Origin: Saprospiraceae bacterium
GTDB taxonomy: Bacteria > Bacteroidota > Bacteroidia > Chitinophagales > Saprospiraceae
Direction: 5' to 3'
Length of the DNA: 64,000 nt
Assembly (NCBI GenBank): GCA_020630475.1
Contig: JAHDBI010000001.1
Span: 182,973 to 246,972, forward strand
Shown here: one piece after another, positions 1,323 through 17,121 of the stretch
Layout: every line of letters starts with the position of its first letter
Numbering within the stretch: the first letter of the stretch is position 1
The notes under the pieces: generated by a model
Told to the model about the DNA's origin: nothing
The model's input: the letters and a program-made list of their open reading frames with translations, nothing else
The model's database searches: none
Program-made: the position numbers and the translations under genes

Positions 1323-1323
1323 A

Positions 1324-2391
1324 CTAGAGATAATCCTTATTAGTAATTTCTTTAATTAAGCGCTTTATTTCTTGTTCTTCACTTTTAGGAATAACGATTA
1401 AAGCGTCTTTTTCGTCAACAATGATAAAATCTTTCAAACCTTTTAATACAAGAATTTTACCACTTTGCGTTCGAATAAAGGAGTTGTCTACACCTTCTAA
1501 GACGACATCTTCGGCCTGAACCACATTTTGTTGTTCATCTTTCTCTAGATAGTCATATAGAGAATTCCATGTACCTAAATCACTCCAACCAATATCGGCT
1601 GGAATAGTAAACACGTTTTTAGCTTTTTCTAGTATGGCGTAGTCAACAGAAATGCTCTCCGTTTTAGGATAGACTCTATCTATATATGTTTGTTCGGTAG
1701 GTGTATTAAAATGATGGGGCTCCTCGTTTAAAACATTTAATATATTAGGCGCGTTAGCCGCGAAAGAATCCATAATCGTTTTGGAACTCCAAACAAAAAT
1801 ACCTGCATTCCATAGATAGCTACCATTATCAAGATATTTTTGCGCTGTTTCTTTGTTAGGTTTTTCCTTAAATGAAACGACCTTTCTTATTTCATTTCCT
1901 TCAGAAGCGGTAGATTCAATATATCCGTATCCAGTATCAGGACGAGTAGGTTGTATTCCTAAGGTTACTATGGATGATTCGCTTTGCGCGAATTCGAAAG
2001 CCTGATTAATTCGATTTATGAATTCTGTTTCTTTTAGGATGACGTGATCGGAAGGTACAATAGCAAAAACGGCATCTTTATTACGTGCATTTAAATGTAA
2101 TGCGGTATAAGCAACACATGGTGCGGTATTGTTTCGTGAAGGTTCACAAAGGACATTAGAATCAGGAAGTTCAGGTAGTTCTTTTTTAACTAAGTCTCGA
2201 TATTGTTTATTGGTTACTATTAATACATTTTCATTGCCTACGATTTGAGCACTACGTTCGTAAGTAATTCTTAATAGTGATTTTCCAATCCCTAAAATAT
2301 CTAGAAATTGTTTTGGAAAGGTAGATCGGCTCGCAGGCCAAAAGCGGGATCCTACTCCTCCAGCCATGATGGCTATGTATTTATTTTTCAA
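1324..2391 (-). CDS. manC: Mannose-1-phosphate guanylyltransferase-type sugar-1-phosphate nucleotidyltransferase, no C-terminal isomerase/cupin domain
   Basis: 'IMAGGVGSRFWPASR' pyrophosphorylase signature. The ORF track starts at ATG 2451, which overlaps wecB by 52 nt. A TTG at 2391 gives 'MKNKYIAIMAGG...' and removes the overlap. ATG 2367 is a third option. Confidence 0.85.
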   Translation of the reverse strand: MKNKYIAIMAGGVGSRFWPASRSTFPKQFLDILGIGKSLLRITYERSAQIVGNENVLIVTNKQYRDLVKKELPELPDSNVLCEPSRNNTAPCVAYTALHLNARNKDAVFAIVPSDHVILKETEFINRINQAFEFAQSESSIVTLGIQPTRPDTGYGYIESTASEGNEIRKVVSFKEKPNKETAQKYLDNGSYLWNAGIFVWSSKTIMDSFAANAPNILNVLNEEPHHFNTPTEQTYIDRVYPKTESISVDYAILEKAKNVFTIPADIGWSDLGTWNSLYDYLEKDEQQNVVQAEDVVLEGVDNSFIRTQSGKILVLKGLKDFIIVDEKDALIVIPKSEEQEIKRLIKEITNKDYL

Positions 2392-2399
2392 TGTAAAAA

Positions 2400-3494
2400 T
2401 TATAGGTTTGAAATAATACTCACTATTCTTGGAGCTGTTGCTCCATCCCATTTATCTGGAATTCCTCCTATCTTCCAATTTCCTGAGGTAAGTTTTTGAA
2501 GAAACGGAACAATATTTTCTGGATTAGTACCAACGAGTTCATTCGTTCCTACAGTTATAGTTTCAGGTCGTTCTGTTGAGTTTCTCAAGGTCATACATGG
2601 AATTGATAATACGGTAGTTTCTTCGGTGATTCCTCCTGAATCAGTAATAACACCAGCAGAATTTTTTATGAGATAGATAAATTCCAAATAGGATAGCGGT
2701 CCAGTTATTATAAGGTTTTTAAAGTTCATTCCCAATTGATCGTACATCTTTTGGGTTCTAGGATGCATTGGAAAAACAACTCTACGATTACCAACATTTT
2801 GATTAATAATATCTAACAGACTTCGTAAACTTTCCATCCCATCTACATTCGAAGGTCTATGTAAGGTCATCACCAAATATTCTTTATTTGCTAGTTGCTT
2901 TTCGTTCCACAATGCTGGTTCGATCAATCTATTCAAATTTCCTAAAAGTGAATCTATCATTGTATTTCCTACGTAGAAAATCTTATCCGAGGAATGACCT
3001 AAAGCTTGAAGGTTTTCATTTGCAATAGTAGAAGTTGTAAAGAAATAATCCGTAATACTATCCGTGACCATCCTATTAATTTCTTCAGGCATTTTTTCAT
3101 CTCCACTTCTGATTCCTCCTTCTACGTGTGCAACCTTTATCCATTCTTTTTTTGCCACAATTGCACAGGCCATGGTCGAAGTTACATCTCCAACCACAAT
3201 GCAAAGTTGCGGTTTCCACTCTTTGATGGCTTCTTCATAACGCATCATTATATTAGCTGTTTGAAAAGCTGCGGTCCCAGAACCAACTCCAAGATTAATA
3301 TTGGGTTGAGGAATATTCAATTGTTCGAAAAAATCGTCACTCATCTTCTTATCATAATGCTGACCTGTATGTATTAAGCGATATTCGATTGATTCATTAG
3401 GATTGGATTCATTATGACTATGAATAGCATGTATGATAGGTCCTATTTTCATAAAATTAGGACGAGCTCCAGCGATAATGTCTATTTTTTTCAT
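2400..3494 (-). CDS. wecB: UDP-N-acetylglucosamine 2-epimerase, non-hydrolysing (WecB/WbpI type)
   Basis: 364 aa. 'IIAGARPNFMKIGPI', 'HTGQHYD', 'DSGGITEET'. Confidence 0.85.
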   Translation of the reverse strand: MKKIDIIAGARPNFMKIGPIIHAIHSHNESNPNESIEYRLIHTGQHYDKKMSDDFFEQLNIPQPNINLGVGSGTAAFQTANIMMRYEEAIKEWKPQLCIVVGDVTSTMACAIVAKKEWIKVAHVEGGIRSGDEKMPEEINRMVTDSITDYFFTTSTIANENLQALGHSSDKIFYVGNTMIDSLLGNLNRLIEPALWNEKQLANKEYLVMTLHRPSNVDGMESLRSLLDIINQNVGNRRVVFPMHPRTQKMYDQLGMNFKNLIITGPLSYLEFIYLIKNSAGVITDSGGITEETTVLSIPCMTLRNSTERPETITVGTNELVGTNPENIVPFLQKLTSGNWKIGGIPDKWDGATAPRIVSIISNL

Positions 3495-4168
3495 TTTATA
3501 AAATTACGCTTTGGTAGTTCTTTAAACCATGTATATAATATGTTACTTTCTGGAACTAACACTACCCAAGCGGTGATAATAATTATTTTAAGATCAGTCC
3601 AAAAACTTTGGTTTTTTTGATACCATTGTTCAAGTGCACCTTTATGAGGATAAATAGTGTTTTTATAAAAATCCCATGTGTCTCCACCCTTATCTCTAAC
3701 TTTTGTAATGAGTTCTTCCTCGTCTCGAAACACGATAGAACCTATTCCCGTAAGACCTGGCTTTACATTATATATTACCTTTTGGACTTCTTCAGGATAC
3801 GCATCAAAACTCTTTTGCATAACTGGGCGTGGCCCAACGACACTCATATGCCCAAATAAGATGTTTAGCAACTGAGGCAGTTCATTGATTTTCGACTTTC
3901 TTAAAAAGCCACCCATTGGAGTTATTCTAGGATCCTTTTTTGTAGTAATCAATCCTCCTTTCATGTTTGGACTATCTTTGAGCATAGTCGCGAATTTATA
4001 AATGTCAAATGGTTTGTTTTTAAGACCGACTCTTTCTTGAAAATAAAAGATATATCCTTCACCGGTCAACTTTAAACCAATTACAATAGGAATCAATAAA
4101 GGTGATAAAACTATAAGGGCTACAAGTGAAGAAAAAATATCGAAGAATCTTTTAATACTCAAATACAT
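3491..4168 (-). CDS. Initiating undecaprenyl-phosphate sugar-phosphate transferase (small PglC/WcfS-type bacterial sugar transferase)
   Basis: 225 aa. N-terminal re-entrant helix 'FFDIFSSLVALIVLSPLLIPIVI'. 'ELPQLLNILFGHMSVVGPRP' signature. Confidence 0.9.
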   Translation of the reverse strand: MYLSIKRFFDIFSSLVALIVLSPLLIPIVIGLKLTGEGYIFYFQERVGLKNKPFDIYKFATMLKDSPNMKGGLITTKKDPRITPMGGFLRKSKINELPQLLNILFGHMSVVGPRPVMQKSFDAYPEEVQKVIYNVKPGLTGIGSIVFRDEEELITKVRDKGGDTWDFYKNTIYPHKGALEQWYQKNQSFWTDLKIIIITAWVVLVPESNILYTWFKELPKRNFIK

Positions 4169-4170
4169 GA

Positions 4171-5379
4171 TTACATTTTCTGATCTAAACTTTTACCTGT
4201 TTCAATATGGCTAAAGTCAGGTATGTGTCTGTTTAAAAGCTCAATGATATCTGACTTCGATATTTCTTTTGAAAATAAATCTTTAAATTCATTCAAAAGC
4301 GAACCAATTGCTTCAAGTGATGGCTTATCTGCATTTTTGATCACATTGAGCTGGGAAAACGAATCAGTATCTACTATATCGCCCGACTCGTAAAATTCTT
4401 CGTACATTTTTTCACCTGAGGTATCTGATCCGAAAAAATAAACAGGATACTTTTTGTTTTCAATGGTCCAGTTAGATGCCATTTCTTTGGCTTCTTTTTC
4501 TGACGAACAATATTGACATTCCATCCCAAGTTCTTGAAGAAATTGCTCAGCTATAGACGAAAAAGTCATCATCTGATTTTCCTTTAAAGTAGGAAAGAAA
4601 ATGTCCCCCGAGTCACCAAGAATGCTTGCCAACATACAAAGTTGTCCAGACTCTAAAGGCGATACAAAATAACGCCTTACATCCGAAGGAGAAGATAAGG
4701 GTTGTCGCTTCATCATTCTATAAATGAAACCATCGAGAAGACTACCATTAGAAAATGCCACATTTGCAAATCGTGCTGTAGTGATTTTAATATTCTTAGA
4801 ATAGGCCATGAGAACTTTTTCCATTAGTTTTTTACTTGCACCCATTACGCTGACGGGGTTTGCAGCCTTGTCTGTAGAGACGGAAAAAAAATGGTTTGGT
4901 TTACTTTCGTTTATAAGATCAAGTAACCTGGCTGTATTGAATACATTGTTATTTACCATTGCCTCAATGGCTAAATGATCCTTTTCACTACGTACATGTT
5001 TATGCGCTGCAAAACAAGCAATAATATCAAAGTGTTTTGATTGAAGCAGTTTTGCAAAGATGTCCCCACCAAAATCAAATGGATAAGTAATATATTCTTG
5101 CGGCATTGGAATTTCATCGCTACTTCTTAAATCCCTAGTCACTTCTGTTAGACCATTTTCACTATAATCGACTACGGTTAATTTTCCGGGTAAAAAAGGC
5201 AATATTGCCTTTATGTAAGATGAACCTATTGTACCTGCGCCCCCAATAACAAGTACGGATTTTCCTTTAATTTCTTTAGAAAGCTCTTGTTTATTTGACT
5301 CAATATCCTTTGAAAACAAGCTTTCACTTCTCTTTGTAATATGTGTATCTATAAATTTAGGAACATTTAATAAGTGCAT
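4171..5379 (-). CDS. CapD/PglF-like nucleotide-sugar 4,6-dehydratase/epimerase (soluble, no N-terminal TM domain)
   Basis: 402 aa. Rossmann 'VLVIGGAGTIGSS'. 'SVSTDKAANPVSVMGASKKLME' matches the CapD-family STDKA...GA(S/T)K motif. Confidence 0.8.
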   Translation of the reverse strand: MHLLNVPKFIDTHITKRSESLFSKDIESNKQELSKEIKGKSVLVIGGAGTIGSSYIKAILPFLPGKLTVVDYSENGLTEVTRDLRSSDEIPMPQEYITYPFDFGGDIFAKLLQSKHFDIIACFAAHKHVRSEKDHLAIEAMVNNNVFNTARLLDLINESKPNHFFSVSTDKAANPVSVMGASKKLMEKVLMAYSKNIKITTARFANVAFSNGSLLDGFIYRMMKRQPLSSPSDVRRYFVSPLESGQLCMLASILGDSGDIFFPTLKENQMMTFSSIAEQFLQELGMECQYCSSEKEAKEMASNWTIENKKYPVYFFGSDTSGEKMYEEFYESGDIVDTDSFSQLNVIKNADKPSLEAIGSLLNEFKDLFSKEISKSDIIELLNRHIPDFSHIETGKSLDQKM

Positions 5380-5447
5380 TGTCCTTAAGTTTTCTAATTA
5401 GGTACTTGTATTTTTTTAAATAATCAAAGTTAATTTCACTTTGGGAT

Positions 5448-6602
5448 TTAATAGAAGGCATTAATTACTTTAATCACTTCTTCGACTTGTTGATCGGTTA
5501 AACTCGTAGAAGACGGGATGCTTATACATTGTTTATATACCTCGTTTGCTTTATCTCCTTCAGTAACATAAGGTACATCGTTAAACATTTCGAGTTGATT
5601 CATAGGCACCCAAAACGGTCTACATTGTACACCGTTGTTTAGTAAGTGCTTAATCATTGGACGTTGTTGTTTTACTTTCATTGTATGAAGCCAATTGTTT
5701 GGGATAACGTCCATGCCTACCTTTTGAAACGTTAAATCATCCGACTCTAAACCTTCTCGATAACGCCTGTCTATTTCCTTTTTTCGAATTAAAAAATCCG
5801 GTAGTTGTTCCATTTGCGCTACCCCAATTGCGGCAAGGATGTTGACTAACCTATAATTATATCCTATTTGGTCATGGTTATATTCAAAAGGATCAGTTTT
5901 AGCTTGAGTTGTAATATGCTTTGCTCTTTTAGCAAGACCCTCATCGTTTGTAACAATTACACCACCACCACCTGTACTAATAATTTTATTTCCATTAAAA
6001 CTAAATGTTCCAAATTGCCCAAATGTACCAGCGTGCCTTCCTTTATAATTCGACCCTAATGCTTCTGTAGAATCTTCTACCATTGTAATATGGTATTTTT
6101 TACAGATGCGGACTAAATGATCCATATCACACATATTACCTAATACGTGAACAGGTAATATTGCAGAAATAGGTTTATCATCTTTTTTATAAAAACTTAG
6201 AATTTCCTTTTCGCCAAATTCATTTAGACGTTCCTCTATATATGTGTTGTTGTCGAGGAAGTTTTCCAATAGATGGAGATCCATTTGCCAAGTTTCTTCA
6301 TCAACGTCAATTAAAAGAGGAGTTGCACCAGTATAAGCAACCGAGTTACAGCTTGCTATAAAAGTAATGTTGGGAACAATAACGTAATCTCCTTGTACTA
6401 CACCAGACAATTCTAGTGCAATATGAAGTGCGGCAGTTCCATTCATAGCTGCCACTCCAAATTTGGCACCAGCAAAATCTGCCACCATATTTTCAAACTG
6501 AGTAACGTAACTACCGACAGAAGAAACCCAGCCGGTGTCTAAACAGTCCTTAACATATTTCCATTCGTTACCTGCAATGTTTGGAATAGATAATGGGATC
6601 AT
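5448..6602 (-). CDS. DegT/DnrJ/EryC1/StrS-family PLP aminotransferase (PglE/LegC-like)
   Basis: 384 aa. 'LSIPNIAGNEWKYVKDCLDTGWVSS'. PLP-lysine region 'FSFNGNKIISTGGGG'. Confidence 0.9.
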   Translation of the reverse strand: MIPLSIPNIAGNEWKYVKDCLDTGWVSSVGSYVTQFENMVADFAGAKFGVAAMNGTAALHIALELSGVVQGDYVIVPNITFIASCNSVAYTGATPLLIDVDEETWQMDLHLLENFLDNNTYIEERLNEFGEKEILSFYKKDDKPISAILPVHVLGNMCDMDHLVRICKKYHITMVEDSTEALGSNYKGRHAGTFGQFGTFSFNGNKIISTGGGGVIVTNDEGLAKRAKHITTQAKTDPFEYNHDQIGYNYRLVNILAAIGVAQMEQLPDFLIRKKEIDRRYREGLESDDLTFQKVGMDVIPNNWLHTMKVKQQRPMIKHLLNNGVQCRPFWVPMNQLEMFNDVPYVTEGDKANEVYKQCISIPSSTSLTDQQVEEVIKVINAFY

Positions 6603-7228
6603 AGTTTTAATATTTTACCTGGATTACCAACAACAGTCGCATTGTCTGGTACGTCCTTTATTATGACTGATCCAGCTCCAATAGTTACATTATCTCCAAT
6701 GTTAATTCCTTCTTTTACTACAGCATTAGCTCCGACAAAAGAATTCTTACCAACGGAGATATTTCCGCATAAAACGGCACCAGGTGCTAAGTGCGAAAAC
6801 GCTTTTATTATATTTTCATGTTCGACCGTTGCATTAGTATTAATGATTACGCCGTCTTCGATGATTGTTTGAGGGTTGATCACTGCTCTAGCTGCAATCA
6901 ATACTCCATGACCTATTCGTGCTGATTTAGAAACAACACTACTTTTATGAATAGCATTAATAGGTTTTTTTCCTATGGATTCACTTATTTGTTTTATCAC
7001 GCTTTCGCGAATTTTATTATTTCCAATTCCAACGAAATAATTTAATTCTTTGAGTTTTCCAATAGCTCGTTCTTCTTTTTCAGATCCTAGGAATTCTAGC
7101 TTATAAGGATTGACATCTTTTAATACATTTTCACAATAGTATTTAATGGTCTTACCATGACTTTCAATAGCCTCAATACAAACATGAGCATGTCCAGAAT
7201 ATCCTACAATTATCATATTATTTAGCAA
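6599..7228 (-). CDS. NeuD/PglD-family sugar N-acetyltransferase (left-handed beta-helix)
   Basis: 209 aa. N-terminal 'MIIVGYSGHAHVCIEAI' mini-Rossmann. C-terminal hexapeptide repeats '...GANAVVKEGINIGDNVTIGAGSVIIKDVP'. Confidence 0.85.
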   Translation of the reverse strand: MLNNMIIVGYSGHAHVCIEAIESHGKTIKYYCENVLKDVNPYKLEFLGSEKEERAIGKLKELNYFVGIGNNKIRESVIKQISESIGKKPINAIHKSSVVSKSARIGHGVLIAARAVINPQTIIEDGVIINTNATVEHENIIKAFSHLAPGAVLCGNISVGKNSFVGANAVVKEGINIGDNVTIGAGSVIIKDVPDNATVVGNPGKILKL

Positions 7229-8462
7229 TGGACTTTAAGTGTGAAACATAATCACTAGAGAGTTTATGTCTTGAGAAATGTTCTTGAGCATATGCATATC
7301 CGCTTTCACCCATTTTTTCTAGTTCATTTTTGTCAAGACTTAATAAGTGCAATATCTTTCTTTTAAAGTCTTCTGGATTTTCTGGTTCAACAAAAACGCC
7401 ACTTTTAGAGGTTTCAACAAGCTCTCTACTTACACCATCGATAGCCATTAATATAGGTTTCTTACAAGACATATAATCGAATGTTTTGTTAGAATATATT
7501 GTTTTGAACGTATCAACCTTTTTGAGAATCGAAGCTCCAAAGTCAGAAGCATTAATGTATTTAAATACTTCAGACTTAGGGACCATGCCTATAAATCGGA
7601 CATTTGTTAATTTAAGACGTTCGCATTCTTTTTCTAATTCAGGACGCTGCATACCATCTCCAATCATTAGAAATAATATTTCTGGATGAGATTCCTTTAA
7701 AAGTTCTGCTGTTTTAATAGCTTGAATTAAATGGTTTGCAACTCCATGCGCACCTACATACGTGATAATTGTTTTTCCCTCTAAATCATTTTCATTTTTA
7801 AAGGCTTCGACATCCATATCCTTAATAGATGCTTCACATAGGGTGAAATCAGCAGCGTTAGGAATAAAAATAATTTTATCTTTTGGCACCCCTTTTTCAA
7901 TCAATTTCGTTCTAAAAGCTGGAGTGAGTACATTGATGAGTTTCGCCCTTTTATAAATGAATTTTTCAAACCAATATGCAAAGCGAATAATAAACTTATT
8001 GTTTAAAACACCTGTATCGATAGCTGATTCAGGCCAGAGATCTCTAACTTCAAAAACATAGGGTAATCGTTTAAATAACGATAGAATGTAAGCTGTTATC
8101 GCAACAAACAAAGGAGGCGAGCTGACAAGGATAATATCGTATTTACCTTTAGCCTTAAATAAACCTGCCCAAATGCTAGAAAAAACAAAAGAAAAGTAAG
8201 CCCAAAGCCTTCCTATGAAATTCGAATTATAACTTTCGGACACATGACATCTGATTACATCTAATCCTGGTTCATATTCATCTCTAAGAAATATTTTTCC
8301 TTTATATCGATCTCTTTTCTTACCTGTTCCGTAATGAACCATTCCGGCTAAAACGGTAACGGTATGACCTTGATCTACCCAAAACTTGGTCATTTGATTA
8401 AATCTAGATCCACCTCCGTCGTCTTTTTCTAAAAACATCTGATGGATTAAAAGAATATTCAT
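7218..8462 (-). CDS. Glycosyltransferase family 4, WbuB-like
   Basis: 414 aa. 'MNILLIHQMFLEKDDGGGSRFNQMTKFWVDQGHTVTVL', typical of WbuB-type GT4 enzymes. Confidence 0.85.
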   Translation of the reverse strand: MNILLIHQMFLEKDDGGGSRFNQMTKFWVDQGHTVTVLAGMVHYGTGKKRDRYKGKIFLRDEYEPGLDVIRCHVSESYNSNFIGRLWAYFSFVFSSIWAGLFKAKGKYDIILVSSPPLFVAITAYILSLFKRLPYVFEVRDLWPESAIDTGVLNNKFIIRFAYWFEKFIYKRAKLINVLTPAFRTKLIEKGVPKDKIIFIPNAADFTLCEASIKDMDVEAFKNENDLEGKTIITYVGAHGVANHLIQAIKTAELLKESHPEILFLMIGDGMQRPELEKECERLKLTNVRFIGMVPKSEVFKYINASDFGASILKKVDTFKTIYSNKTFDYMSCKKPILMAIDGVSRELVETSKSGVFVEPENPEDFKRKILHLLSLDKNELEKMGESGYAYAQEHFSRHKLSSDYVSHLKSIAK

Positions 8463-8471
8463 TTTCTGTTT

Positions 8472-10301
8472 TTAATTATCAACACTTATTCTAAACCATG
8501 CTTCATGAGACTTAGGCCTTAAAGCTATACTTTTTCCATGTTCTTCTTTCATATAATTTGTAGAACGAGGTGACACTTCATACTCGATTAGCTCCGATGA
8601 TGTGAAATGAACATTATTTGTATCCTTACAAATTTGATCAATATGATAGTTTATTTGATAAGGTTCATTGGTATTGACCAAATCAGTTATGTGTATAAAA
8701 GCACTATTTAACATTATATTTCTTTGATGATGATTTCCTTTGAAGTCTTTATAACTTCCATTCCAAGACAAACCATCTTTAAGCTTTTTTATCTCACCGA
8801 TATGTTCTGCAGTGATCCATGAACCATTTAAGAAGCGACTAATTTTAGGCATTTGATTATGTTCTCCAAATTGAATGGTATTATGCGCACTCACACTTTT
8901 GTACCATTCCGATTTTTTATGGTTGTATGAATAGGTACCTGTGCCAATGACTACAGGTTTACCGTTGTACCAAATATCTATGTGAAATGCATCATTGTTT
9001 GGTCTAAAACTAGCTTCTGGAATTTTTAAAAAACAAGACAAGTTCTTGTTTCTTAGAAGTAAAATTTGATTGTCTAGAATTTCCGCAGCTTCCAAGGATA
9101 TATTGTATTTAGGCCATTGAAAAGATGTCGCTCCAAATCTCCAAAACAAAGACTCATCTACTCTTCTTGAATCGTATACTCTTTTTTGAAGAAGAGCTCC
9201 GAAAAAGGCCTGTGTAGAACCACGAAAATCCCTATATGTTAAAGTGTTTAAAGATTCAATTCTAGCTCCGTCATTACTACCATAATTAGGTCCATCCCCG
9301 TCTTTACCTAAAGTCATTTTATATTGCCATTGACCTAATTGTTCTAAACGCGAAATTATTTCATTTGGAAACAATGGTTGATCCATGAGTTTCATCATGT
9401 GGAGAGTAAAGGTCATAGTGTCTAATAAAACCCGATGATAAGTCATTGAACGTTGGGAAAAGGACCCCTGCGGCTGTACTAATCGACGAATTCTTTCTTC
9501 TAGAACCTTACGACCGTTGTTTTTCCAAGTAGATATTTCCTTAGAAATAAAGTTATTCTTTTCTAACCAAAGTCCGCCAATGTACAATGCTGCCGCTTCA
9601 CTAGTACCATGATTATTATCTTGGGCAATCGCATAGTTTATATTTGGATAAACCCTTTTTAAATGCTGATAAATCATAGATTTTAATTCAACAGTTGGGT
9701 CTAATAATTGGTCTAGAACGAAAGCAGTTGTGAGTAGTTTCATAATTCGAAATGAAGTTTCTTGTCCACATTTCCAATTAGGTCCAATGTTTAGAGGATT
9801 CTTCTCATTCCAGTCATTCAGCAATCGATTGATTCTTAATAAATATTTTTGATCGCCAGAACTTTTATAGGCTAGGCTCAAATCATATAACCAATCGAAT
9901 CGAGACAATTCCCAAATTATTTTTATATCTCCAATATTTAGATCGAAATCTGAGAAATTCAACCAATGCTTTTTATAATCGGTAATTTCAGTATCATGGA
10001 ATGGGTTATAAAACCAAGAAGGAATTTCGTTTAGCTTAAAAATATGTTCTGAAAAATATTTAAAATGTCCGAGCATAATTTGGTCAGCATTTTTAAATAT
10101 TTGTTTTTTCCATGATTCTTGAACGTCCGTTAATTTGTTGGATGGTTTAAATATATTTCCTGTAATTGTTTTGTCGGTTTTGAATTTGTATTTTCTAAAA
10201 CCCAAACGGATACTTGCCTTATACCAAAGTGCATAGAAAAAATTCCAATAGCCAATTTTTGGAATCAATTGAAAAATTAGAAGTAGTTTCTTAAAGGTCA
10301 A
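8472..10301 (-). CDS. Heparinase II/III-like (alginate-lyase-fold) protein of unknown biosynthetic role
   Basis: 609 aa. 'NNHGTSEAAALYIGG'. C-terminal 'DAFHIDIWYNGKPVVIGTGTYSY...SAHNTIQF' resembles the Hepar_II_III C-domain motif. No convincing signal peptide. Confidence 0.8.
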   Translation of the reverse strand: MTFKKLLLIFQLIPKIGYWNFFYALWYKASIRLGFRKYKFKTDKTITGNIFKPSNKLTDVQESWKKQIFKNADQIMLGHFKYFSEHIFKLNEIPSWFYNPFHDTEITDYKKHWLNFSDFDLNIGDIKIIWELSRFDWLYDLSLAYKSSGDQKYLLRINRLLNDWNEKNPLNIGPNWKCGQETSFRIMKLLTTAFVLDQLLDPTVELKSMIYQHLKRVYPNINYAIAQDNNHGTSEAAALYIGGLWLEKNNFISKEISTWKNNGRKVLEERIRRLVQPQGSFSQRSMTYHRVLLDTMTFTLHMMKLMDQPLFPNEIISRLEQLGQWQYKMTLGKDGDGPNYGSNDGARIESLNTLTYRDFRGSTQAFFGALLQKRVYDSRRVDESLFWRFGATSFQWPKYNISLEAAEILDNQILLLRNKNLSCFLKIPEASFRPNNDAFHIDIWYNGKPVVIGTGTYSYNHKKSEWYKSVSAHNTIQFGEHNQMPKISRFLNGSWITAEHIGEIKKLKDGLSWNGSYKDFKGNHHQRNIMLNSAFIHITDLVNTNEPYQINYHIDQICKDTNNVHFTSSELIEYEVSPRSTNYMKEEHGKSIALRPKSHEAWFRISVDN

Positions 10302-12387
10302 TCCAACAATGTCTTTTTAAACTATTGATAGCAGCAAAACTTGCTCTGGAAACATTAATTAATTCGTCCTCAGGAATTAAAGAACAACTTGTGTTCTCAG
10401 ATATTCGTCTAAATTGTTCTTTATGACCTTTGTCCTGCCTAGTCTTTAGTTTTTTAAAGTTCTTAATACCGTATGCGTTAGTTTCTCTGAAGTTGTCCAT
10501 TATGATCGTATTTTCGTCAAAATACACTTCGAGACGTTCTTTTGAATAGGCTTTATTGCCATTTGCAAAATAATTGATAACGCCATTATCTCCGTTTTTA
10601 AATTTTAAAAGAATGCTTGCATTATCAGTGTTTTCATGTGGGTTAAGCCCCAAAGCATTCATACATACAGAACTTACTTTACTACCGGACAAGTAAACCA
10701 AGAGATCAATAAAATGACAAGCTTCACCGATTATTCTTCCACCACCAACCTCTAAATCGTGTACCCATACATTTGCGGGAATATGGCCAGCATTCATTGT
10801 TGCGATCATATTTTTTGGAGATTGCTCAGGAATACTCGATTTCATTTTTTGAATATGAGGAGAAAATCGTCGATTAAAACCAACGTTTAGTACACCAGAA
10901 GAACTCTGTAAAGCATTAATGACTTTATTCAATTCGCGTTCATTAAGGGCAAGAGGTTTTTCAACAAATACATTTTTTCCAGATTCTAAACTTTCTATAA
11001 TAATCGGTGCATGTAAGTTGTGCCTAGTCGTTATTATAACTAAGCCTACTTCCTCATCCTGCAAGGAATCTTTATAGTTACTTGAGCAATATTCTATTCC
11101 ATGTTTTTTACCTAGCGCCTTAGATGACAACCCACCTTTACTAATGATGTATTTTATATCTGCGTCTTTCATATTAGGAAGCATGGTCATTTTTGTAAAA
11201 TTACCGGCGCCGATTATTGCGATCTTCTTATTGCTATTTCCTGTTTTAGAATCGCGAATTTTAATTGAATTTGATTGTTGCGATTCTTCAGAATAAACTA
11301 ACAAACTAGCAATTGATTTCGATGAATTTATATTACCGTATATTTTTTGGTAATCATCGAGTTCAATTCTTTCAGAAATAAGATCATGAACATTAATGGT
11401 TTTTCTTTCAATGGCTGCAAGGACTGTTTCAAAATTTCTTTTTTCCGTCCAACGGACAAAAGGGAGTGGATAGTCTTGACCTTTCTGTTCATAATTTTCA
11501 TCATATCTTCCAGGTCCATAAGAGCATGATACTTGAAAACTTAATTCTTTTTCATAGAAATCTGCGCGACTAATATCAAGGCCTATAACACCTATCAATA
11601 CAATGCGACCGCGCTTTCGTGACATGTTAGCGCATTGCGAAATGATTTCGTTGTTTTTGGCGGAAGCCGTAATAATTACGCCATCTGCACCAACATTGTT
11701 AGAATTATTTAAAACAAATTTTACAGGATCCCCTTTCAATGGATTAAACCCAATAACACCTAATTTATTTGCTAGCTCGACTTTAGAGTCATCGATATCA
11801 AGTCCTATCACTTTACAACCGTTGGCTAAAAGCAATTGAGCAGTAATTAAGCCAATTAAGCCCAAACCACTGACTACAATTGTTTCTCCGATGGTAGGGT
11901 TAATTAAACGAATACCTTGCAATCCAATTGATCCGATAACGGTAAACGCCGCATCTTCATCATTTACACCATCTGGAATCTTCGCAACTAGATTTTGCGG
12001 GACAGATACAAATTCCGCATGATGTCCATTACTAGCTACTCGATCACCTACGGAAAATTCCGTAACTCCCTGACCTATATCAATTACTTTTCCAACATTA
12101 CAATAGCCTAACGGAAGAGGTTGTTCTAGTTTATTAAAAACGGTTTCAAGCGTAGGCATTAATCCATCAGACTTAATTTTGTTTAAAACCATTTTTACTT
12201 TATCGGGTTGTTGTCTTGCTTTTTGGATAAGGTTAGCCTTTCCAAATTCTACCAACATTCGCTCTGTTCCTAAGGAGACTAAAGATCTTGTGGTTTTTAT
12301 CAAAACTTGTCCAGGCCCAACGATTGGACTTGGTACGTCTTCAAGAATAGTTTCTCCTGTTTTAAAGGACTGTATAATTTGTTTCAT
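10291..12387 (-). CDS. Bi-domain oxidoreductase: N-terminal Zn/MDR alcohol-dehydrogenase-like domain fused to a C-terminal Gfo/Idh/MocA domain
   Basis: 698 aa. 'GQVLIKTTRSLVSLGTE'. First Rossmann 'VVSGLGLIGLITAQ'. Second Rossmann 'KIAIIGAGNFTKMTMLPN'. Confidence 0.85.
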   Translation of the reverse strand: MKQIIQSFKTGETILEDVPSPIVGPGQVLIKTTRSLVSLGTERMLVEFGKANLIQKARQQPDKVKMVLNKIKSDGLMPTLETVFNKLEQPLPLGYCNVGKVIDIGQGVTEFSVGDRVASNGHHAEFVSVPQNLVAKIPDGVNDEDAAFTVIGSIGLQGIRLINPTIGETIVVSGLGLIGLITAQLLLANGCKVIGLDIDDSKVELANKLGVIGFNPLKGDPVKFVLNNSNNVGADGVIITASAKNNEIISQCANMSRKRGRIVLIGVIGLDISRADFYEKELSFQVSCSYGPGRYDENYEQKGQDYPLPFVRWTEKRNFETVLAAIERKTINVHDLISERIELDDYQKIYGNINSSKSIASLLVYSEESQQSNSIKIRDSKTGNSNKKIAIIGAGNFTKMTMLPNMKDADIKYIISKGGLSSKALGKKHGIEYCSSNYKDSLQDEEVGLVIITTRHNLHAPIIIESLESGKNVFVEKPLALNERELNKVINALQSSSGVLNVGFNRRFSPHIQKMKSSIPEQSPKNMIATMNAGHIPANVWVHDLEVGGGRIIGEACHFIDLLVYLSGSKVSSVCMNALGLNPHENTDNASILLKFKNGDNGVINYFANGNKAYSKERLEVYFDENTIIMDNFRETNAYGIKNFKKLKTRQDKGHKEQFRRISENTSCSLIPEDELINVSRASFAAINSLKRHCWIDL

Positions 12388-14105
12388 TCATTGTTTATTT
12401 CTGCTCCAGGTGTTAACCTAGTACGAAGCATTTCTGCGTCTGGATAATGTTGCGGAAGCCTTTTAAGCTTAAACTTTTCTAACCTTTCAACACTGTTTTT
12501 TGACCAATTAAATTCTCCTTTTTTAAAATTATATTCTAAAGGAAGAATTTTATTCCCAGTCCAAGCTTGAGATGTATTAGCATTAAATTCAGATTTTTTG
12601 CCCTTATCTATAATGAAAAGATTCTTTTCAGTAACACCATTTTTAGAAGAGTAAAACACATTATTATCGATATCAATACCATCTTCTTGAAAACCAGTAG
12701 ACTGCATAAGTGTACCGCTAGAAACAAAGATATTATTGTAAAATGTACTGTTTACAGGTGATCGTTGTTTTTTTAAATGGTTACCAACAGCCAAGGGATT
12801 GTTTTTTGAAATACAGGTGTTATGATAGAAATGAACATTTCCACTCAACTTGACACTTTCACCATTTTTGATTGATTTACCATTTGGAAGATTCCAGAAC
12901 TTCAAAACCTTTGGTTCAACCAATCTCACGGGTTTTCCCTTTTGTTGACTGTAATTGTATTTAACAACATTTGAAAAAACGAGGTTGTCGTAAATATAAA
13001 CTGGTCCAGTTTCAATTGGTGTTAAACTAAAAGCAACAAAACAATTTTCGATGATATTGTTTCGAACAATAGCGTTAATTGATGCTCCATCAAGCTCAAC
13101 CGCGTCATCTCCAATGTTAGATATATAGTTGGATTCAATAATTACATTTTTTGGCTTTGAATTCACACCATTAAAGAATCCACTTATTGTATTATTCTTG
13201 ACAACAAAAGAATCGCATTTACCTCCGGCATAAACGATACCACTCCCACCCATAGATTTGGATAGTTTTCGTTCGCTCCAAGTACAATTGATAGGTAGCC
13301 TTTTAGTAATCATACAATCCTCAATCGTTAAACCTGGTCCAGCACATTGATTGAAATAAAAACCATCAATAGGGTTAACAACACATAGATTTTTGATGGT
13401 AACGTTTTCAAATCGTCCGCTTCCCCTTATGCAATATCGTCCAGAGTATTTAAACTCTATCCATTTTTTTTCTCCCCCGTCAATGACGACATTTTTTAAA
13501 TTTCCTAACCATAATACCTGGCCAGTATATGTAAAAATGGTTCTCTTCGAAAATTTGTCTATGGGTTTGTTAATTGCAATGGTAATTTTGTCCCTTTCAA
13601 AGAGTACTCCTTCTCCATCTGTATTCGAGATTTTTCTGGCTTCAAACTGTTTTATGTTATCATAAGTCCAAAGCATTTTATCATTTTTGAGATAGAGATT
13701 ATTTCTATAAATCCAATGATCTTTAAAAGATTTATTAATTAGTCGATATTTTTTAGGTATATCAACTTGATAAATGTATTGCAGTTTTTTATTCTGTATG
13801 TTTCCGCTTTTTTTGATGAATTTCCAATGAGCATCTTCGCGATTTTCTAAATCTTTAATGGATCCCCAAATTTCCACCTTTCCATCACCTGCGGCAAGAA
13901 TAGTAATATCACTTTTATCAACAAACTTGAGTACTTCATGATAAATTCCTTTATGTAAGATTATGCTATCTCCACTCTGGGCATTTTCAAATGCTTGTTG
14001 GATAGTCAAACTAGTATTAGGGTAAATGTGAATTTCACGGGAAGTAATAGTATTTATTCCAAGGACTAAAAGCAAAAAAGAAAAGAATGCTTTTTTAAAG
14101 TTCAT
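12384..14105 (-). CDS. Secreted right-handed parallel beta-helix repeat protein (pectate-lyase/AlgG-like fold)
   Basis: 573 aa. Signal peptide 'MNFKKAFFSFLLLVLGINTITS'. Repeated turns 'NNTISGFFNGV', 'SNYISNIGDDAVELDG', 'VRNNIIENCFVAFS', 'IYDNLVFSN'. Confidence 0.7.
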   Translation of the reverse strand: MNFKKAFFSFLLLVLGINTITSREIHIYPNTSLTIQQAFENAQSGDSIILHKGIYHEVLKFVDKSDITILAAGDGKVEIWGSIKDLENREDAHWKFIKKSGNIQNKKLQYIYQVDIPKKYRLINKSFKDHWIYRNNLYLKNDKMLWTYDNIKQFEARKISNTDGEGVLFERDKITIAINKPIDKFSKRTIFTYTGQVLWLGNLKNVVIDGGEKKWIEFKYSGRYCIRGSGRFENVTIKNLCVVNPIDGFYFNQCAGPGLTIEDCMITKRLPINCTWSERKLSKSMGGSGIVYAGGKCDSFVVKNNTISGFFNGVNSKPKNVIIESNYISNIGDDAVELDGASINAIVRNNIIENCFVAFSLTPIETGPVYIYDNLVFSNVVKYNYSQQKGKPVRLVEPKVLKFWNLPNGKSIKNGESVKLSGNVHFYHNTCISKNNPLAVGNHLKKQRSPVNSTFYNNIFVSSGTLMQSTGFQEDGIDIDNNVFYSSKNGVTEKNLFIIDKGKKSEFNANTSQAWTGNKILPLEYNFKKGEFNWSKNSVERLEKFKLKRLPQHYPDAEMLRTRLTPGAEINNE

Positions 14106-14123
14106 ATTTCAATGGATGTTGTG

Positions 14124-15215
14124 TTAACAAGTTAGAATCTCTTCAAATGAATTAATAGCCTTTTCCACAGAATTGTTTTCTAAAATTCTTTGTTGGGCGT
14201 TTGTCGCTATTTGTATGCGAAGTTTAGGATTGTCTTTTAAAGTTAAAATCAACCGTGCCATTTGTTGGGTATCACCAGGTTCTATAAGGAAACCATTTTT
14301 TTCATCAGTGATTAAGTCAGGAATAGAACCAACTTTTGTTGAAATAACTGCTGTTTTCGAAGCCATTGCTTCAATCAATGCATTAGGATATCCCTCCCTA
14401 TATGAAGGAAGAACAAAAGTATCTGCAATTTTTAAATACTCAAACTTCTTAGTTCCTGTGACCCAACCAAGAAGCAGAAATTTTTCTTGCAAGTCTAATT
14501 CAATTATTTTTTCTTGAAGTTTTTCAAATTCATCACCATCACCGGCTAAGTAAAACGTAATCTTTTCGTTTTTTAGTTGACGAGCCGCCTCTAATAAATC
14601 ATAGACGCCTTTATTTTTTGTTATCCAACCAATAAAAACAACATTGAAATATTCTGTTGACTTGGTTGACTTATTGATATTTATGTATGGTTTTACATCA
14701 ATCCAATTATGTATTATTTTAAACTCAGTAGTTTTATTTTGGCATAAGCCACGATAAAATTTTTGCCACGACTCTCCTTGACATAAAATAACATCAACAT
14801 AGTTCATTGATTTAATCACGATGGATTTAAATTTTTCACTTTGCTCAATATCATTTTTAATAAGCCCTGACCGTGGAGCTAGAATGGTTTTTTTACCAAA
14901 CAAATTTCCAATACGTGCCATCAAGGCTTTTTCGCGAAAGCTAAATCCATTAGAACAAAAAATGAGCAATAGATCAACTTTTTTAAACAGAAGGTAATAG
15001 ATCAATTTTGAAAACCTTACTATCGACATAAAGAGTCTCGATAGGAAAGACCTTCCTTTATTTGTTGAAGAAGTTGAATCTATTAGATGCCAATTTACAT
15101 TGTTGGATATACTGCTATTTATTAAAGTGGTACAAGCGTACATTTGACCACCGACGTGCCCTGATTTTGATTTATTGACAAAAGAACCTATAAAAATTAT
15201 TGATTTTTTTGACAT
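14124..15215 (-). CDS. Glycosyltransferase family 4
   Basis: 363 aa. 'VLPSYREGYPNALIEAMASKTAVISTKVGSIPDLITDEKNGFL' (E-x7-E). Confidence 0.85.
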   Translation of the reverse strand: MSKKSIIFIGSFVNKSKSGHVGGQMYACTTLINSSISNNVNWHLIDSTSSTNKGRSFLSRLFMSIVRFSKLIYYLLFKKVDLLLIFCSNGFSFREKALMARIGNLFGKKTILAPRSGLIKNDIEQSEKFKSIVIKSMNYVDVILCQGESWQKFYRGLCQNKTTEFKIIHNWIDVKPYININKSTKSTEYFNVVFIGWITKNKGVYDLLEAARQLKNEKITFYLAGDGDEFEKLQEKIIELDLQEKFLLLGWVTGTKKFEYLKIADTFVLPSYREGYPNALIEAMASKTAVISTKVGSIPDLITDEKNGFLIEPGDTQQMARLILTLKDNPKLRIQIATNAQQRILENNSVEKAINSFEEILTC

Positions 15216-15216: not shown

Positions 15217-17121
15217 TTAATTTTCGACCTGATACTTTTTCATCCAGCCGGCTAGTAAAAGCAATGCCCAGTGTTGATGGCTTGATCTATATTTTGTGGC
15301 ATTAACTAATGTTTTATTTGAAAGCGTAACAGCTTCTATTTGTTTAGCCTTTTGGTAATCAAGCGTGTTAAACAATGGATTGTTCTTATTTAGTAAGTTT
15401 TCCGAAAGTCTTCGGTAATTGTCGTTTTGATATTTATGAAGAGGAATACTAAAGCCACTTTTCGGATGATTAAAAACACTTTTTGGAAGATGCTTTGACA
15501 TCATCTTTCTAAGAATAATTTTACCTAATCCATTTTTATAAAGTAAATCATCATGAATGTTTAATGATGCATTAAACAAATCTGGATCTAAAAAGGGAGC
15601 CCTGACTTCTAGCGAATTTGCCATGCTCATTCGATCTACTTTGATAAGCATATCATTAACTAAGTTATGTTTAATACGATAAAACATACTTTTTCTTAAG
15701 GGAGACCAATTTTTATATTCCTTAGGAAAGCTTGTCAGTAGGGAGAAGTTTGTTTTTGGGCTATCGATAAATAAGTCATTTGCCTCCTTTTCTAAAAAGA
15801 GTCTATGAATTTCCATACTAATATGATTCTCACCTTTTAGTGAAGCAGTTACTGCACGATTAATTTGTCTCCGCTTATCTTGTGGTATAATTGTACCTAA
15901 ACTATTTAAAACGGATAATCCCATTTTTCTAATAGAAACAGGATATCGGTTAAGCTTATTGATTTTTTTCCACCAGCCAAAAACAGGATAGCCCCCAAAT
16001 ATTTCGTCGCCCCCATCTCCTGATAAAGCAACGGATACATACTTTTTGATTTCCTTAGAGATTAAATAGACCGGTATCGCAGAAGAATCTGGAAAGGGTA
16101 GACCCACATGGTCAATGATGGTCCAAAACAAATTCTCATCAAAATTTTGATTAGGAATTGTAATCTCATGATGTTTGCTTCCAATTCTTTCTGCAACTTC
16201 TTGAGCTATTTTAGACTCATCGTAACTAGCCTCTTCAAATTTTACTGTGAATGTATTTATAGGCTTAGGACTATTTTTTTGTAACAAGGCACATACAGTA
16301 CTTGAATCAATTCCACCTGAAAGAAATGCACCAATTGGAACATCACTAACGGTTTGTCGATTTACAGCTTTTTCTAAAACAGGAAAGAGATATTCTGTTG
16401 CCTCTTTTTCATTGTATATGAGCTTTTCGCGGTTTCCATAACTTATTTCGAAATACGGGTTTATTTTTATTTGGTTATTCTCAATAGTCAATGTATGTCC
16501 AGGTGGCAACGAATGAACTTCTTTTAATAAGGTCAAAGGTTCTGGCACATAAGCAACTGCTAAGTAATACTTTAAAGCCTCTTTGTTTAGTTTTTTAGTT
16601 ATTAGAGGGTTTTCTAAAAGGGAGGCAATTTCGCTGGAAAAACTAAATTCGCCATTTTCATGATAGTAATAAAGAGGTTTTTCACCGAAGCGATCTCTTC
16701 CAATAAGAATTCGATTCCTTTTAAGGTCAAACAAGCAAAAAGAAAACATTCCTTTTAACTTTTTCACGAAACCGTCACCATATTCTTCGTATGCGTGAAC
16801 GAGAACTTCAGTATCGGATCGTGAAACAAATTTATGACCATTTACTAATAAGGATTCACGTATATCCATGAAATTGTAAATCTCTCCATTCATAAAAACA
16901 AGAATGTCTTTATGTTCATTCCATAGAGGTTGATTTCCAGAATGTTTGTCAATAATAGCCAACCTTCTCATTGCTAGTGAAGCAACTTCGTTATGGAACC
17001 CTCCTTCTCCATCAGGACCTCTATGAATAATGGCTTGGTTCATTTTAACCACTCTTTCTTTTCGAGAAAGAGTGCTAGGAAAAGAAGGGTTAATATTTAC
17101 TATTCCGCATATTCCGCACAT
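15217..17121 (-). CDS. Asparagine synthase (glutamine-hydrolysing)-like amidotransferase, copy 1
   Basis: 634 aa. N-terminal nucleophile 'MCGICGI'. PP-loop 'FLSGGIDSSTV'. Confidence 0.9.
   Translation of the reverse strand: MCGICGIVNINPSFPSTLSRKERVVKMNQAIIHRGPDGEGGFHNEVASLAMRRLAIIDKHSGNQPLWNEHKDILVFMNGEIYNFMDIRESLLVNGHKFVSRSDTEVLVHAYEEYGDGFVKKLKGMFSFCLFDLKRNRILIGRDRFGEKPLYYYHENGEFSFSSEIASLLENPLITKKLNKEALKYYLAVAYVPEPLTLLKEVHSLPPGHTLTIENNQIKINPYFEISYGNREKLIYNEKEATEYLFPVLEKAVNRQTVSDVPIGAFLSGGIDSSTVCALLQKNSPKPINTFTVKFEEASYDESKIAQEVAERIGSKHHEITIPNQNFDENLFWTIIDHVGLPFPDSSAIPVYLISKEIKKYVSVALSGDGGDEIFGGYPVFGWWKKINKLNRYPVSIRKMGLSVLNSLGTIIPQDKRRQINRAVTASLKGENHISMEIHRLFLEKEANDLFIDSPKTNFSLLTSFPKEYKNWSPLRKSMFYRIKHNLVNDMLIKVDRMSMANSLEVRAPFLDPDLFNASLNIHDDLLYKNGLGKIILRKMMSKHLPKSVFNHPKSGFSIPLHKYQNDNYRRLSENLLNKNNPLFNTLDYQKAKQIEAVTLSNKTLVNATKYRSSHQHWALLLLAGWMKKYQVEN

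Follow-up and report, generated by a model that had tools for sequence, protein, structure and literature searches.

The OXR–HEP–GT4 triad

The window, by which we mean the whole stretch of 64,000 nucleotides analysed here from a Saprospiraceae bacterium (contig JAHDBI010000001.1, positions 182,973 to 246,972), is a single minus-strand polysaccharide locus of about 34% GC; every gene placed below by coordinates in this 64-kb window lies on that strand. Our subject is a triad of adjacent genes: a fused MDR::Gfo/Idh/MocA oxidoreductase of 698 amino acids (OXR, 10291–12387), a heparinase II/III-fold protein of 609 amino acids with a TTG start codon (HEP, 8472–10301), and a family 4 glycosyltransferase of 414 amino acids that resembles WcaI and WbuB (GT4, 7218–8462). 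OXR and HEP were delimited from their open reading frames (ORFs) and Pfam domains, GT4 from Pfam and NCBIfam. The three ORFs and the overlap between the first two, as given in the original prediction, were recovered exactly. The OXR and HEP ORFs have 11 nt in common, 9 nt separate the end of HEP from the start of GT4, and GT4 overlaps the following gene by 11 nt.

HEP is a member of the Hepar_II_III_N/Hepar_II_III_C superfamily, as both domains exceed the Pfam gathering thresholds (Hepar_II_III_N, E 7e-15 and 55.6 bits with a cut-off of 22; Hepar_II_III_C, E 3e-14 and 53.4 bits with a cut-off of 24). The HepC equivalog model NF045573 covered residues 123–305 only and reached 51.5 bits, the cut-off being 700, and Pfam found no PF06662 domain in the protein. 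The N-terminal motif IPKLGYWNxxYxxWYrlSlKxGxRK is kept in homologues, and the long TTG start is therefore regarded as real. The public gene call (P0001, 577 aa) begins 32 codons too late and loses this N-terminal helix-hairpin motif. That HEP has no convincing signal peptide had been noted before, and hydropathy analysis agrees: neither a signal peptide nor a transmembrane helix was found, the maximal Kyte-Doolittle score over 19 residues being 1.18 compared with 2.63 for the membrane helix of the PglC-like neighbour, and the conserved N-terminus is non-cleavable. On sequence grounds, HEP is a cytoplasmic protein. OXR is placed in the same compartment because it needs NAD.

The AlphaFold2 model of HEP (pLDDT 93.7) carries the (alpha/alpha) toroid plus beta-sandwich fold of polysaccharide lyase (PL) family 12. 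In a Foldseek search of the PDB its best matches were the PL12 heparinase III structures 4MMI, 5JMD and 4FNV (E 1.5e-20, TM-score about 0.53, 16% identity), followed by lyases of families PL33, PL39, PL17, PL15 and PL35. Human dermatan sulfate epimerase 1 (DS-epi1, 6HZN) stood at rank 25 (E 9.8e-12, TMq 0.55), and Glce, the glucuronyl C5-epimerase, was not among the top 50 matches. The original prediction had looked to Glce for a fold precedent; a precedent for an epimerase on this fold does exist in DS-epi1, but Glce lies outside the top 50 and has no detectable homology to HEP. We take Asn240, Tyr294 and His424 to be the catalytic residues of heparinase III (HepIII; P. heparinus numbering). 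In a profile alignment to P. heparinus HepIII, N230/H231 of HEP correspond to N240/H241 and Y288/H289 to Y294/H295.

OXR was found as a single fused ORF in 17 of 17 loci examined, which range from Bacteroidota to Planctomycetota and include Akkermansia and Ralstonia. Its ADH_N and ADH_zinc_N domains span residues 85–297, and GFO_IDH_MocA with its C-terminal domain spans 388–628. The MDR half keeps the GxGxxG motif and Asp197 and is without the canonical Zn ligands, having GYC in place of GHE and no Cys at the CGTD position. The other half is assigned to the Gfo/Idh/MocA family by Pfam (69.6 bits), with GAGN393–396, E476-K477-P478 and H558 invariant. Across the whole protein the invariant motifs are GLGLIG with D197, SCSYGPGRYD, GAGN, EKP and GGGRIxGEACHxxD. 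The closest NCBIfam matches are inositol 2-dehydrogenase, scyllo-inosose dehydrogenase and UDP-GlcNAc 3-dehydrogenase; glucoside and glucuronide 3-dehydrogenases are further relatives. Because OXR combines two complete NAD sites with relatives of this kind, epimerisation of a ring secondary alcohol by oxidation and subsequent reduction would fit it, and we propose that it may act as an NAD-dependent C3 epimerase of an L-configured 2-acetamido-2-deoxyhexuronic acid (L-HexNAcA) intermediate.

GT4 consists of a Glyco_trans_4_4 and a Glycos_transf_1 domain and is proposed to be the enzyme that would transfer the L-HexNAcA to a first sugar linked to undecaprenyl diphosphate (Und-PP). Its earlier description as WbuB-type holds for the domains and for a full-length identity of 32% to an Escherichia coli glycosyltransferase labelled 'glycosyltransferase WbuB' in GenBank record CP016036.1, whose gene likewise stands directly after a heparinase-like gene, but its best NCBIfam family, WcaI, is matched at 137 bits, under the cut-off of 276.

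Conservation of the cassette and of the slot between OXR and GT4

A scan anchored on HEP, with one genome per species, identified 34 loci in Bacteroidota, Deltaproteobacteria, Verrucomicrobiota, Planctomycetota and others. Sufficient flanking sequence was available for 31 of them; the gene immediately after HEP encodes a GT4 in 30 of these, and OXR is directly upstream of HEP in about 18 and lacking in about 11. Often a gene for WecC or a WecB-like protein adjoins, and a module of PglC, acyltransferase, aminotransferase and PglF genes usually follows. In P. mosselii, for example, the order is AsnB-OXR-HEP-GT4-Bac_transf-PglD-aminotransferase-WbpM-like.

The reciprocal scan, anchored on OXR in metagenome contigs, detected more than 588 relatives, from which 80 loci were kept. 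Many of these loci gave no tblastn match with the HEP of the window, and in its place Pfam shows an ORF of 525–560 amino acids with Hepar_II_III_N and Hepar_II_III_C domains. By their domains and divergence, these proteins are classed as a second subfamily, HEP2, the type found in the window being HEP1. In the 64 loci with at least 1.5 kb downstream of OXR, classified with local hidden Markov models, the gene after OXR is HEP2 in 41, HEP1 in 17 and a PF06662 protein in 3, with none of these in the remaining 3. Thus, a heparinase-fold gene follows OXR in 58 of 64 loci and a gene of any slot type in 61 of 64, at a median distance of 7 nt. The association of the cassette genes is far beyond chance, and the co-occurrence mapping suggested in the original prediction shows the triad to be widely kept. 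HEP or a PF06662 (C5-epim_C) gene occurs without OXR in about a third of the loci, and OXR almost never occurs without a slot gene; because of this asymmetry, a scheme in which HEP acts first and OXR is optional would fit.

The two heparinase-fold subfamilies have residues N230, H231, Y288, H289, D437, Y459, H473 and N474 (HEP numbering) in common. H231, Y288 and H473, kept in both, are candidates for a His/Tyr/His triad of the DS-epi1 type. Hydropathy analysis found neither a signal peptide nor a transmembrane helix in the HEP2 and C5-epim_C proteins, the N-termini of which are hydrophilic. A signal anchor at the N-terminus of HEP was considered and ruled out by the hydropathy of HEP itself and by these hydrophilic N-termini.

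The slot is not always occupied by a heparinase-fold gene. Three loci (L087, L090 and L091) show the order OXR-WecB-[C5-epim_C, 323 aa]-GT-...-Bac_transf. The PF06662 proteins of the slot belong to a family of 3763 proteins at E ≤ 1e-20. Their homology to Glce of human and zebrafish is clear (E 1e-36), and none to HEP was detectable (hhalign gave a probability of 31%, over 25 columns). Six more contexts (L119–L124) were taken from the PF06662 family. The arrangement is OXR-C5epi-WecB-GT-epimerase-Bac_transf in L119, OXR-WecB-C5epi-GT4-Bac_transf-PglF-like in L124, AsnB-OXR-carbamoyltransferase-x-C5epi-GT4 in L120, L122 and L123, and C5epi-GT4 without OXR in L121. A GT4 gene with a WbuB-like domain set is immediately downstream of C5epi in all six, and a fused OXR is upstream in five of them. 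The position between OXR and GT4 is therefore filled by any of three unrelated or barely related proteins (HEP1, HEP2 and the Glce type), the last of which comes from a proven C5-epimerase family. This replacement suggests that HEP and the Glce-type slot proteins are functionally equivalent, and it is the best evidence we have that HEP may be a cytoplasmic uronate C5-epimerase, because a proven epimerase family takes its place.

Some further arrangements were observed in these scans. The insertion between OXR and C5-epim_C in L120, L122 and L123 consists of a carbamoyltransferase (Carbam_trans_N/C) and an unannotated protein of 362 amino acids, which hints at O-carbamoylated sugar variants. 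In locus L041 a gene with a DUF4838/GH67N domain (7125–8975) stands right after OXR and is followed by AsnB, with HEP2 about 4 kb further on, which breaks the tight coupling of OXR and HEP. HEP2-type genes annotated as 'alginate lyase family' are present on haloarchaeal megaplasmids of Haloarcula, Halobellus and Haladaptatus (H52–H58; 23–28% identity), and the HEP2-type family may also serve archaeal glycan synthesis. On the E. coli IncC plasmid pC06114_2 (CP016036.1; L116), positions 3153–12748 encode wecB-wecC-three hypotheticals-HEP2-'glycosyltransferase WbuB'-galF, a region that looks like a captured O-antigen fragment on a conjugative plasmid; its HEP2 gene was found in nine more records, for plasmids of E. 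coli, Enterobacter and Citrobacter. The chromosome of E. coli AR_0077 (NZ_CP026755.1; L117) has at positions 1–14884, beside gnd, the order wecB-wecC-several GTs-heparinase II/III-GT4-cpsG-gnd without OXR. This type of O-antigen cluster was present in 4 of 5426 complete genomes and is predicted to make a sugar of the 2-acetamido-2-deoxy-L-guluronic acid (L-GulNAcA) type.

The cassette is also present in organisms whose polymers contain 2-acetamido-2-deoxy-L-galacturonic acid (L-GalNAcA). In a tblastn search against plasmids, 132 of the 141 records matched were Ralstonia megaplasmids, where the match lies inside the operon (eps) for extracellular polysaccharide I (EPS-I). The three components of the EPS-I trimer are described as N-acylated galactosamine, deoxygalacturonic acid and bacillosamine (PMC12846841), and alpha-L-GalNAcA-(1→3)-beta-D-bacillosamine (Bac) is listed for 'P. 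solanacearum GMI1000', Pseudomonas aeruginosa ATCC 27577/O3/O13/O14, Rheinheimera pacifica, Vibrio vulnificus YJ016, R. pickettii and Alteromonas CMM155 (PMC11200240). The Ralstonia gene order is low-molecular-weight protein tyrosine phosphatase, tyrosine kinase, WecB, WecC, two transporters, GT, acyltransferase, OXR, HEP, GT, sugar transferase, acetyltransferase and aminotransferase. Compared with its Ralstonia counterpart, OXR of the window shows 47% identity along the full length (713 aa in Ralstonia), HEP 34% (611 aa) and the GT 30%. OXR and HEP are the sole enzymes of the Ralstonia eps operon that lack an assigned role.

P. aeruginosa PA14, which we take to be of serotype O10, provides a second connection. 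L-GalNAcA-(1→3)-N-acetylquinovosamine (QuiNAc) is found in P. aeruginosa O10 and O19 (PMC11200240). In PA14, zbdP, encoding a 78-kDa MDR+Gfo fusion, and hepP, encoding a protein with heparinase II/III N and C domains, form one operon (PMC5732420), which sits inside the O-antigen cluster (PMC1794565 Table 3; PMC3406104). The report on HepP found no export signal, does not mention the O-antigen or consider L-GalNAcA, and notes Acinetobacter homologues (PMC5732420). The capsule of V. vulnificus YJ016 needs VV0357, a dehydrogenase, and VV0358, a heparinase-like protein (PMC6037467); L-GalNAmA has been described in a polysaccharide obtained from this strain's lipopolysaccharide, according to a reference as it is cited in the literature. 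In Acinetobacter venetianus RAG-1, WeeE and WeeF were postulated to make UDP-L-GalNAcA (Nakar and Gutnick 2001, via PMC9676051), and WeeH-K are the initiating transferase, acyltransferase, aminotransferase and dehydratase (PMC3628348). For seven A. baumannii K loci the weeE/weeF genes were given the new names gnlA/gnlB, KL215 having only gnlB (Cahill et al. 2022, PMC9676051). In the literature searched, no biochemical demonstration of any step of L-GalNAcA biosynthesis was found, including the C5 or C3 inversion. The statement that the function of the triad is not established thus stands as to biochemistry, but it overlooked the proposal made for WeeE/WeeF (gnlA/gnlB) and the report of HepP as a heparinase.

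Proposed route to an L-hexosaminuronic acid and its alternatives

We consider it reasonably probable that a conserved cytoplasmic cassette, with the triad at its core, turns a UDP-linked D-HexNAcA into the L form and installs it in second place in a Wzx/Wzy repeat unit. Most likely, the product is L-GalNAcA, possibly amidated, and the cassette most likely builds a surface polysaccharide and degrades nothing. The earlier idea of an intracellular, non-lytic uronate C5-epimerase gains support from the slot displacement, the fold match to DS-epi1 and the link to L-GalNAcA polymers, all of which would agree with it. In the route that we infer, a 6-dehydrogenase and the WecB-family 2-epimerase of the cassette would yield UDP-D-ManNAcA, or UDP-D-GlcNAcA if 2-epimerisation came last. 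With its Asn/His plus Tyr (plus His) machinery, HEP would abstract H5 beside the carboxylate and re-protonate the opposite face, a C5 epimerisation without elimination that would convert D-manno to L-gulo (D-ManNAcA or D-GlcNAcA to the L-series). OXR would then invert C3, one NAD domain oxidising the 3-OH to a ketone and the other reducing it from the opposite face, so that L-gulo would become L-galacto; this step resembles the IolG/IolW route from myo- to scyllo-inositol. Finally, GT4 would move the L-sugar to an Und-PP-linked bacillosamine-type sugar made by the products of the PglF, aminotransferase, acyltransferase and PglC-like genes, the outcome being the widespread alpha-L-GalNAcA-(1→3)-Bac motif. 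In Fischer terms, D-manno gives L-gulo on inversion at C5 and L-galacto on further inversion at C3, and D-gluco needs inversion at C5, C3 and C2 to reach L-galacto. WbuB-type GTs use L-FucNAc as donor sugar, and L-GalNAcA is its 6-carboxy analogue.

Candidates for the other steps are encoded around the triad. Directly downstream of GT4 are the genes of a first-sugar module of the bacillosamine (QuiNAc4N-acyl) type. A NeuD/PglD-type N-acetyl/acyl transferase (6599–7228; TIGR03570, 196 bits, above cut-off) recurs downstream of GT4 in most related loci. It is followed by a DegT/LegC-type 4-aminotransferase of the LegC/PglE kind (5448–6602; Pfam E 3e-94, TIGR04181 453 bits), syntenic in related loci, and by a Polysacc_synt_2 UDP-GlcNAc 4,6-dehydratase of the PglF/WbpM type (4171–5379; Pfam E 2e-39), syntenic in related loci, Ralstonia and P. 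mosselii. A small PglC-type polyprenyl-phosphate sugar-phosphate (initiating) transferase (3491–4168; NCBIfam EPS_sugtrans-type matches), the source of the 2.63 helix score, has counterparts after GT4 in most loci. The next gene encodes a cassette-linked 2-epimerase of the WecB family, here called WecB* (2400–3494; TIGR00236, 302 bits). Its orthologues (56–77% identical) adjoin OXR, HEP or GT4 in 32 of the 80 metagenome loci and in many genome loci, and the classical WecB+WecC pair stands beside OXR in 7 of the 80, none of which has WecB* too. This pattern suggests two alternative, mutually exclusive precursor routes. WecB* may act early and provide the manno configuration (GlcNAcA to ManNAcA), or it may act last (L-talo to L-galacto) like FnlC. 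Upstream, an AsnB-type glutamine amidotransferase (15217–17121; Pfam Asn_synthase, E 8e-85) has relatives just upstream of OXR in many related loci and is likely an optional accessory that amidates the uronate carboxyl. A TviB/WbpO-like UDP-GlcNAc 6-dehydrogenase (44485–45786; NF011729, 573 bits, just below the cut-off of 592) is the probable source of the uronic-acid precursor; its gene is distal and its membership in the cassette tentative.

Several points weigh against this reading. The epimerase activity of the HEP family is a prediction, and the catalytic residues of HEP would fit a lyase or an epimerase alike, so that they cannot decide between the two. The position of HepIII His424 aligns with the invariant Arg433 of HEP, in a weakly aligned region of low confidence. 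The C3 role proposed for OXR comes from stereochemical bookkeeping and family resemblance only. No canonical WecC was found in the window, and the TviC-like 4-epimerase that is present there leaves precursor and product uncertain; the sugar made in this organism may be L-GulNAcA, L-IdoNAcA, L-TalNAcA or L-GalNAcA. The correspondence of WeeE/WeeF to OXR/HEP, in turn, would follow from gene order and from the Acinetobacter homologues noted for HepP, and not from the sequences. Since no match to HEP, HEP2 or C5epi was found on plasmids for the Shigella sonnei L-AltNAcA locus, not all L-HexNAcA routes use the cassette. (WbgV of S. sonnei/P. shigelloides had been considered as a HEP homologue for L-AltNAcA; it was rejected, as tblastn of HEP1, HEP2 and C5epi against 72,556 plasmids gave no Shigella match.) Lastly, in the sole biochemical report on the family HepP was called a heparinase from one protamine plate assay with a clear zone (Dzvova et al. 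2017, PMC5732420), a claim with no A232 reading, kinetics or product analysis behind it.

This last point bears on whether HEP could be a true polysaccharide lyase, kept for chain trimming or for clearing mis-localised polymer in the manner of AlgL in alginate synthesis, which we regard as very improbable. The Pfam heparinase domains, the PL12-like best fold matches and the retained Asn/His and Tyr residues would all agree with a lyase, as would the clear zone of recombinant HepP on a heparin/protamine plate (PMC5732420) and the AlgL-like role proposed by the V. vulnificus authors (PMC6037467). However, a protein without signal peptide or transmembrane helix, as is the case in every subfamily and in HepP, cannot reach a periplasmic polymer, and the HEP gene is translationally coupled to those of an NAD-dependent oxidoreductase and a cytoplasmic GT. 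Moreover, the slot is taken over by Glce-type epimerases and not by other lyases, the HepC equivalog scores about 51 bits against a cut-off of 700, and heparin is not made by these bacteria. A scheme in which 4,5-elimination would be followed by reduction of the enoate in the MDR half, giving a 4-deoxy sugar, was discarded because the polymers linked to the cassette keep O4, even as a linkage position.

The two remaining alternatives keep HEP as an epimerase and alter its substrate. OXR and HEP might work as one machine of the GME/RmlC kind, in which OXR would oxidise C4 to a ketone, the slot protein (HEP or the Glce type) would invert C5 and C3 of this 4-keto intermediate, and the second OXR domain would reduce C4 again. 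GDP-mannose 3,5-epimerase is a precedent for such logic, a net 3,5-epimerisation is what D-ManNAcA to L-GalNAcA requires, and the two fused redox domains are always beside an epimerase-slot gene, often overlapping it. This is nevertheless distinctly unlikely in our judgement, as slot genes lack OXR in about a third of the loci, including the E. coli O-antigen clusters with wecB-wecC, and the closest relatives of the Gfo half act at ring C2 or C3. In addition, Glce, DS-epimerase and the lyase-fold enzymes use carboxylate-assisted abstraction of the C5 proton and need no keto group. Alternatively, the same chemistry could take place on a lipid-linked intermediate, GT4 adding a D-uronic acid to Und-PP-Bac and HEP then epimerising it at the membrane. 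We hold this to be unlikely, if slightly less so: the HEP–GT4 link is the tightest in the cassette, the HEP1 N-terminus, with its wealth of aromatic and basic residues, could bind a membrane interface, and the characterised relatives on both folds (DS-epi1, Glce and lyases) bind oligo- or polysaccharides and not nucleotide sugars. Against it, the N-termini of HEP2 and C5-epim_C are hydrophilic, WbuB-like GT4s are tied to L-sugar donors, with the cassette GT co-varying with the epimerase, and sugar dehydrogenases of the Gfo type (WbpB, for example) use UDP-sugars.

Returning to C5 epimerisation in the cytoplasm, its extension beyond this locus has, in our estimate, slightly better than even chances: the thousands of heparinase II/III-like proteins in bacterial, perhaps also archaeal, loci of glycan biosynthesis would be a large cytoplasmic C5-epimerase family on the lyase fold, with UDP- or lipid-linked N-acetylhexosaminuronic acids as substrates and interchangeable with the Glce type, and MDR::Gfo proteins a new two-domain redox C3-epimerase.

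Other features of the window lie outside the cassette. Three sulfotransferases (18267–19034, 21623–22456 and 29393–30208) share an operon with CysD/CysN for the supply of 3'-phosphoadenosine 5'-phosphosulfate (46658–48898), which predicts a sulfated bacterial polysaccharide. Neither the sulfotransferases nor the other uronic-acid routes of the locus are conserved with the cassette elsewhere; the original prediction had drawn on both as context, and although sulfotransferases and uronic-acid feeder enzymes are indeed present, they do not belong to the conserved unit. Genes for a free-standing Gfo/Idh/MocA oxidoreductase of 299 amino acids, for a hexapeptide acetyltransferase and for a DegT aminotransferase stand in a row (51876–54469), which looks like a pathway of the WbpB/WbpD/WbpE type leading to a 2,3-diacetamido uronic acid, apart from the triad. 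Directly upstream of OXR and overlapping it by 4 nt is the gene of a 573-aa protein (12384–14105), which begins with a clear signal peptide and contains a domain of the right-handed beta-helix type. This protein could act on the polymer as a secreted lyase, as an epimerase of AlgG-like fold or as a depolymerase; no counterpart was found in any of 114 related loci, and it is not counted in the cassette. A GT gene lies between it and AsnB. Ugd, NeuC/NeuB, Wza, Wzx, Wzy and a second AsnB are encoded elsewhere in the window. A 481-aa protein (20181–21626) has a GINT1_N domain (glucosamine inositolphosphorylceramide transferase 1; E 3e-34), which is unusual in a bacterial glycan locus.

Comparison with known systems

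The locus is a Bacteroidota-type member of an already named module (gnlAB plus gtr), on which the literature is contradictory. New here are the equivalence of HEP1, HEP2 and the Glce type in one slot, the reciprocal co-occurrence counts, the assignment of steps and the connection of HepP with an L-GalNAcA O-antigen. L-GalNAcA and L-GulNAcA are immunodominant sugars, in P. aeruginosa O3/O10/O13/O14/O19, Ralstonia EPS-I, a major wilt virulence factor, the V. vulnificus polysaccharide and the capsule of Acinetobacter RAG-1. If correct, the proposed route would resolve the unsolved biosynthesis of both sugars, naming enzymes and the order of steps with the Glce-type replacement as a natural control. 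It would also overturn the assignment of P. aeruginosa HepP as a heparinase, a virulence 'heparinase' that is then probably mis-assigned, add a second example, and the first from bacteria, of a lyase fold turned epimerase, and improve the prediction of glycan structures from sequence.

Of the systems compared, gnlA/gnlB (WeeE/WeeF) is the nearest in arrangement. After its two adjacent genes come, as in the window, a GT gene and those of the QuiNAc4N-acyl initiating transferase, acyltransferase, aminotransferase and dehydratase (WeeG-K), an order also seen in Ralstonia, P. mosselii and dozens of loci, and gnlB without gnlA in KL215 parallels HEP without OXR. It differs in being a postulate without step-by-step roles, whereas the window is a low-GC Bacteroidota locus with only 34% (HEP) and 47% (OXR) identity to Ralstonia. 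PA14 ZbdP-HepP (PA14_23420/23430) likewise joins an MDR+Gfo fusion and a heparinase II/III N+C protein in one operon of an O-antigen cluster, with no export signal, but was published as a zinc-binding dehydrogenase and a lytic 'heparinase' virulence factor; here HepP would be reassigned to biosynthetic epimerisation.

In structure, HEP is comparable to DS-epi1 (6HZN), which has the same (alpha/alpha) toroid plus beta-sandwich lyase fold and epimerises C5 of uronic acid instead of eliminating. DS-epi1 is, however, eukaryotic and lumenal with a polymer substrate and about 10% identity, while HEP is predicted to be cytoplasmic and to act probably on a nucleotide- or lipid-linked monosaccharide. 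PL12 HepC and the PL15/17/33 lyases are the best sequence and fold matches of HEP, with aligned Asn-His and Tyr-His motifs; unlike HEP, which is encoded in a biosynthetic operon, carries no export signal and has Arg at the His424 position, they are secreted or periplasmic and catabolic. The Glce family (PF06662; 6HZZ, 4PW2) has members of about 325 amino acids in the same slot between OXR/WecB and GT4, which would imply the same reaction, although they share no detectable sequence homology with HEP and animal Glce acts on the heparosan polymer. Finally, the L-FucNAc route of FnlA/B/C and WbuB also leads from UDP-GlcNAc to an L-galacto 2-acetamido sugar with a WecB-family 2-epimerase and a WbuB-type GT4. 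That route proceeds by 4,6-dehydration with SDR enzymes, whereas the cassette would keep the C6 carboxylate and invert C5 and C3 with enzymes of other folds.

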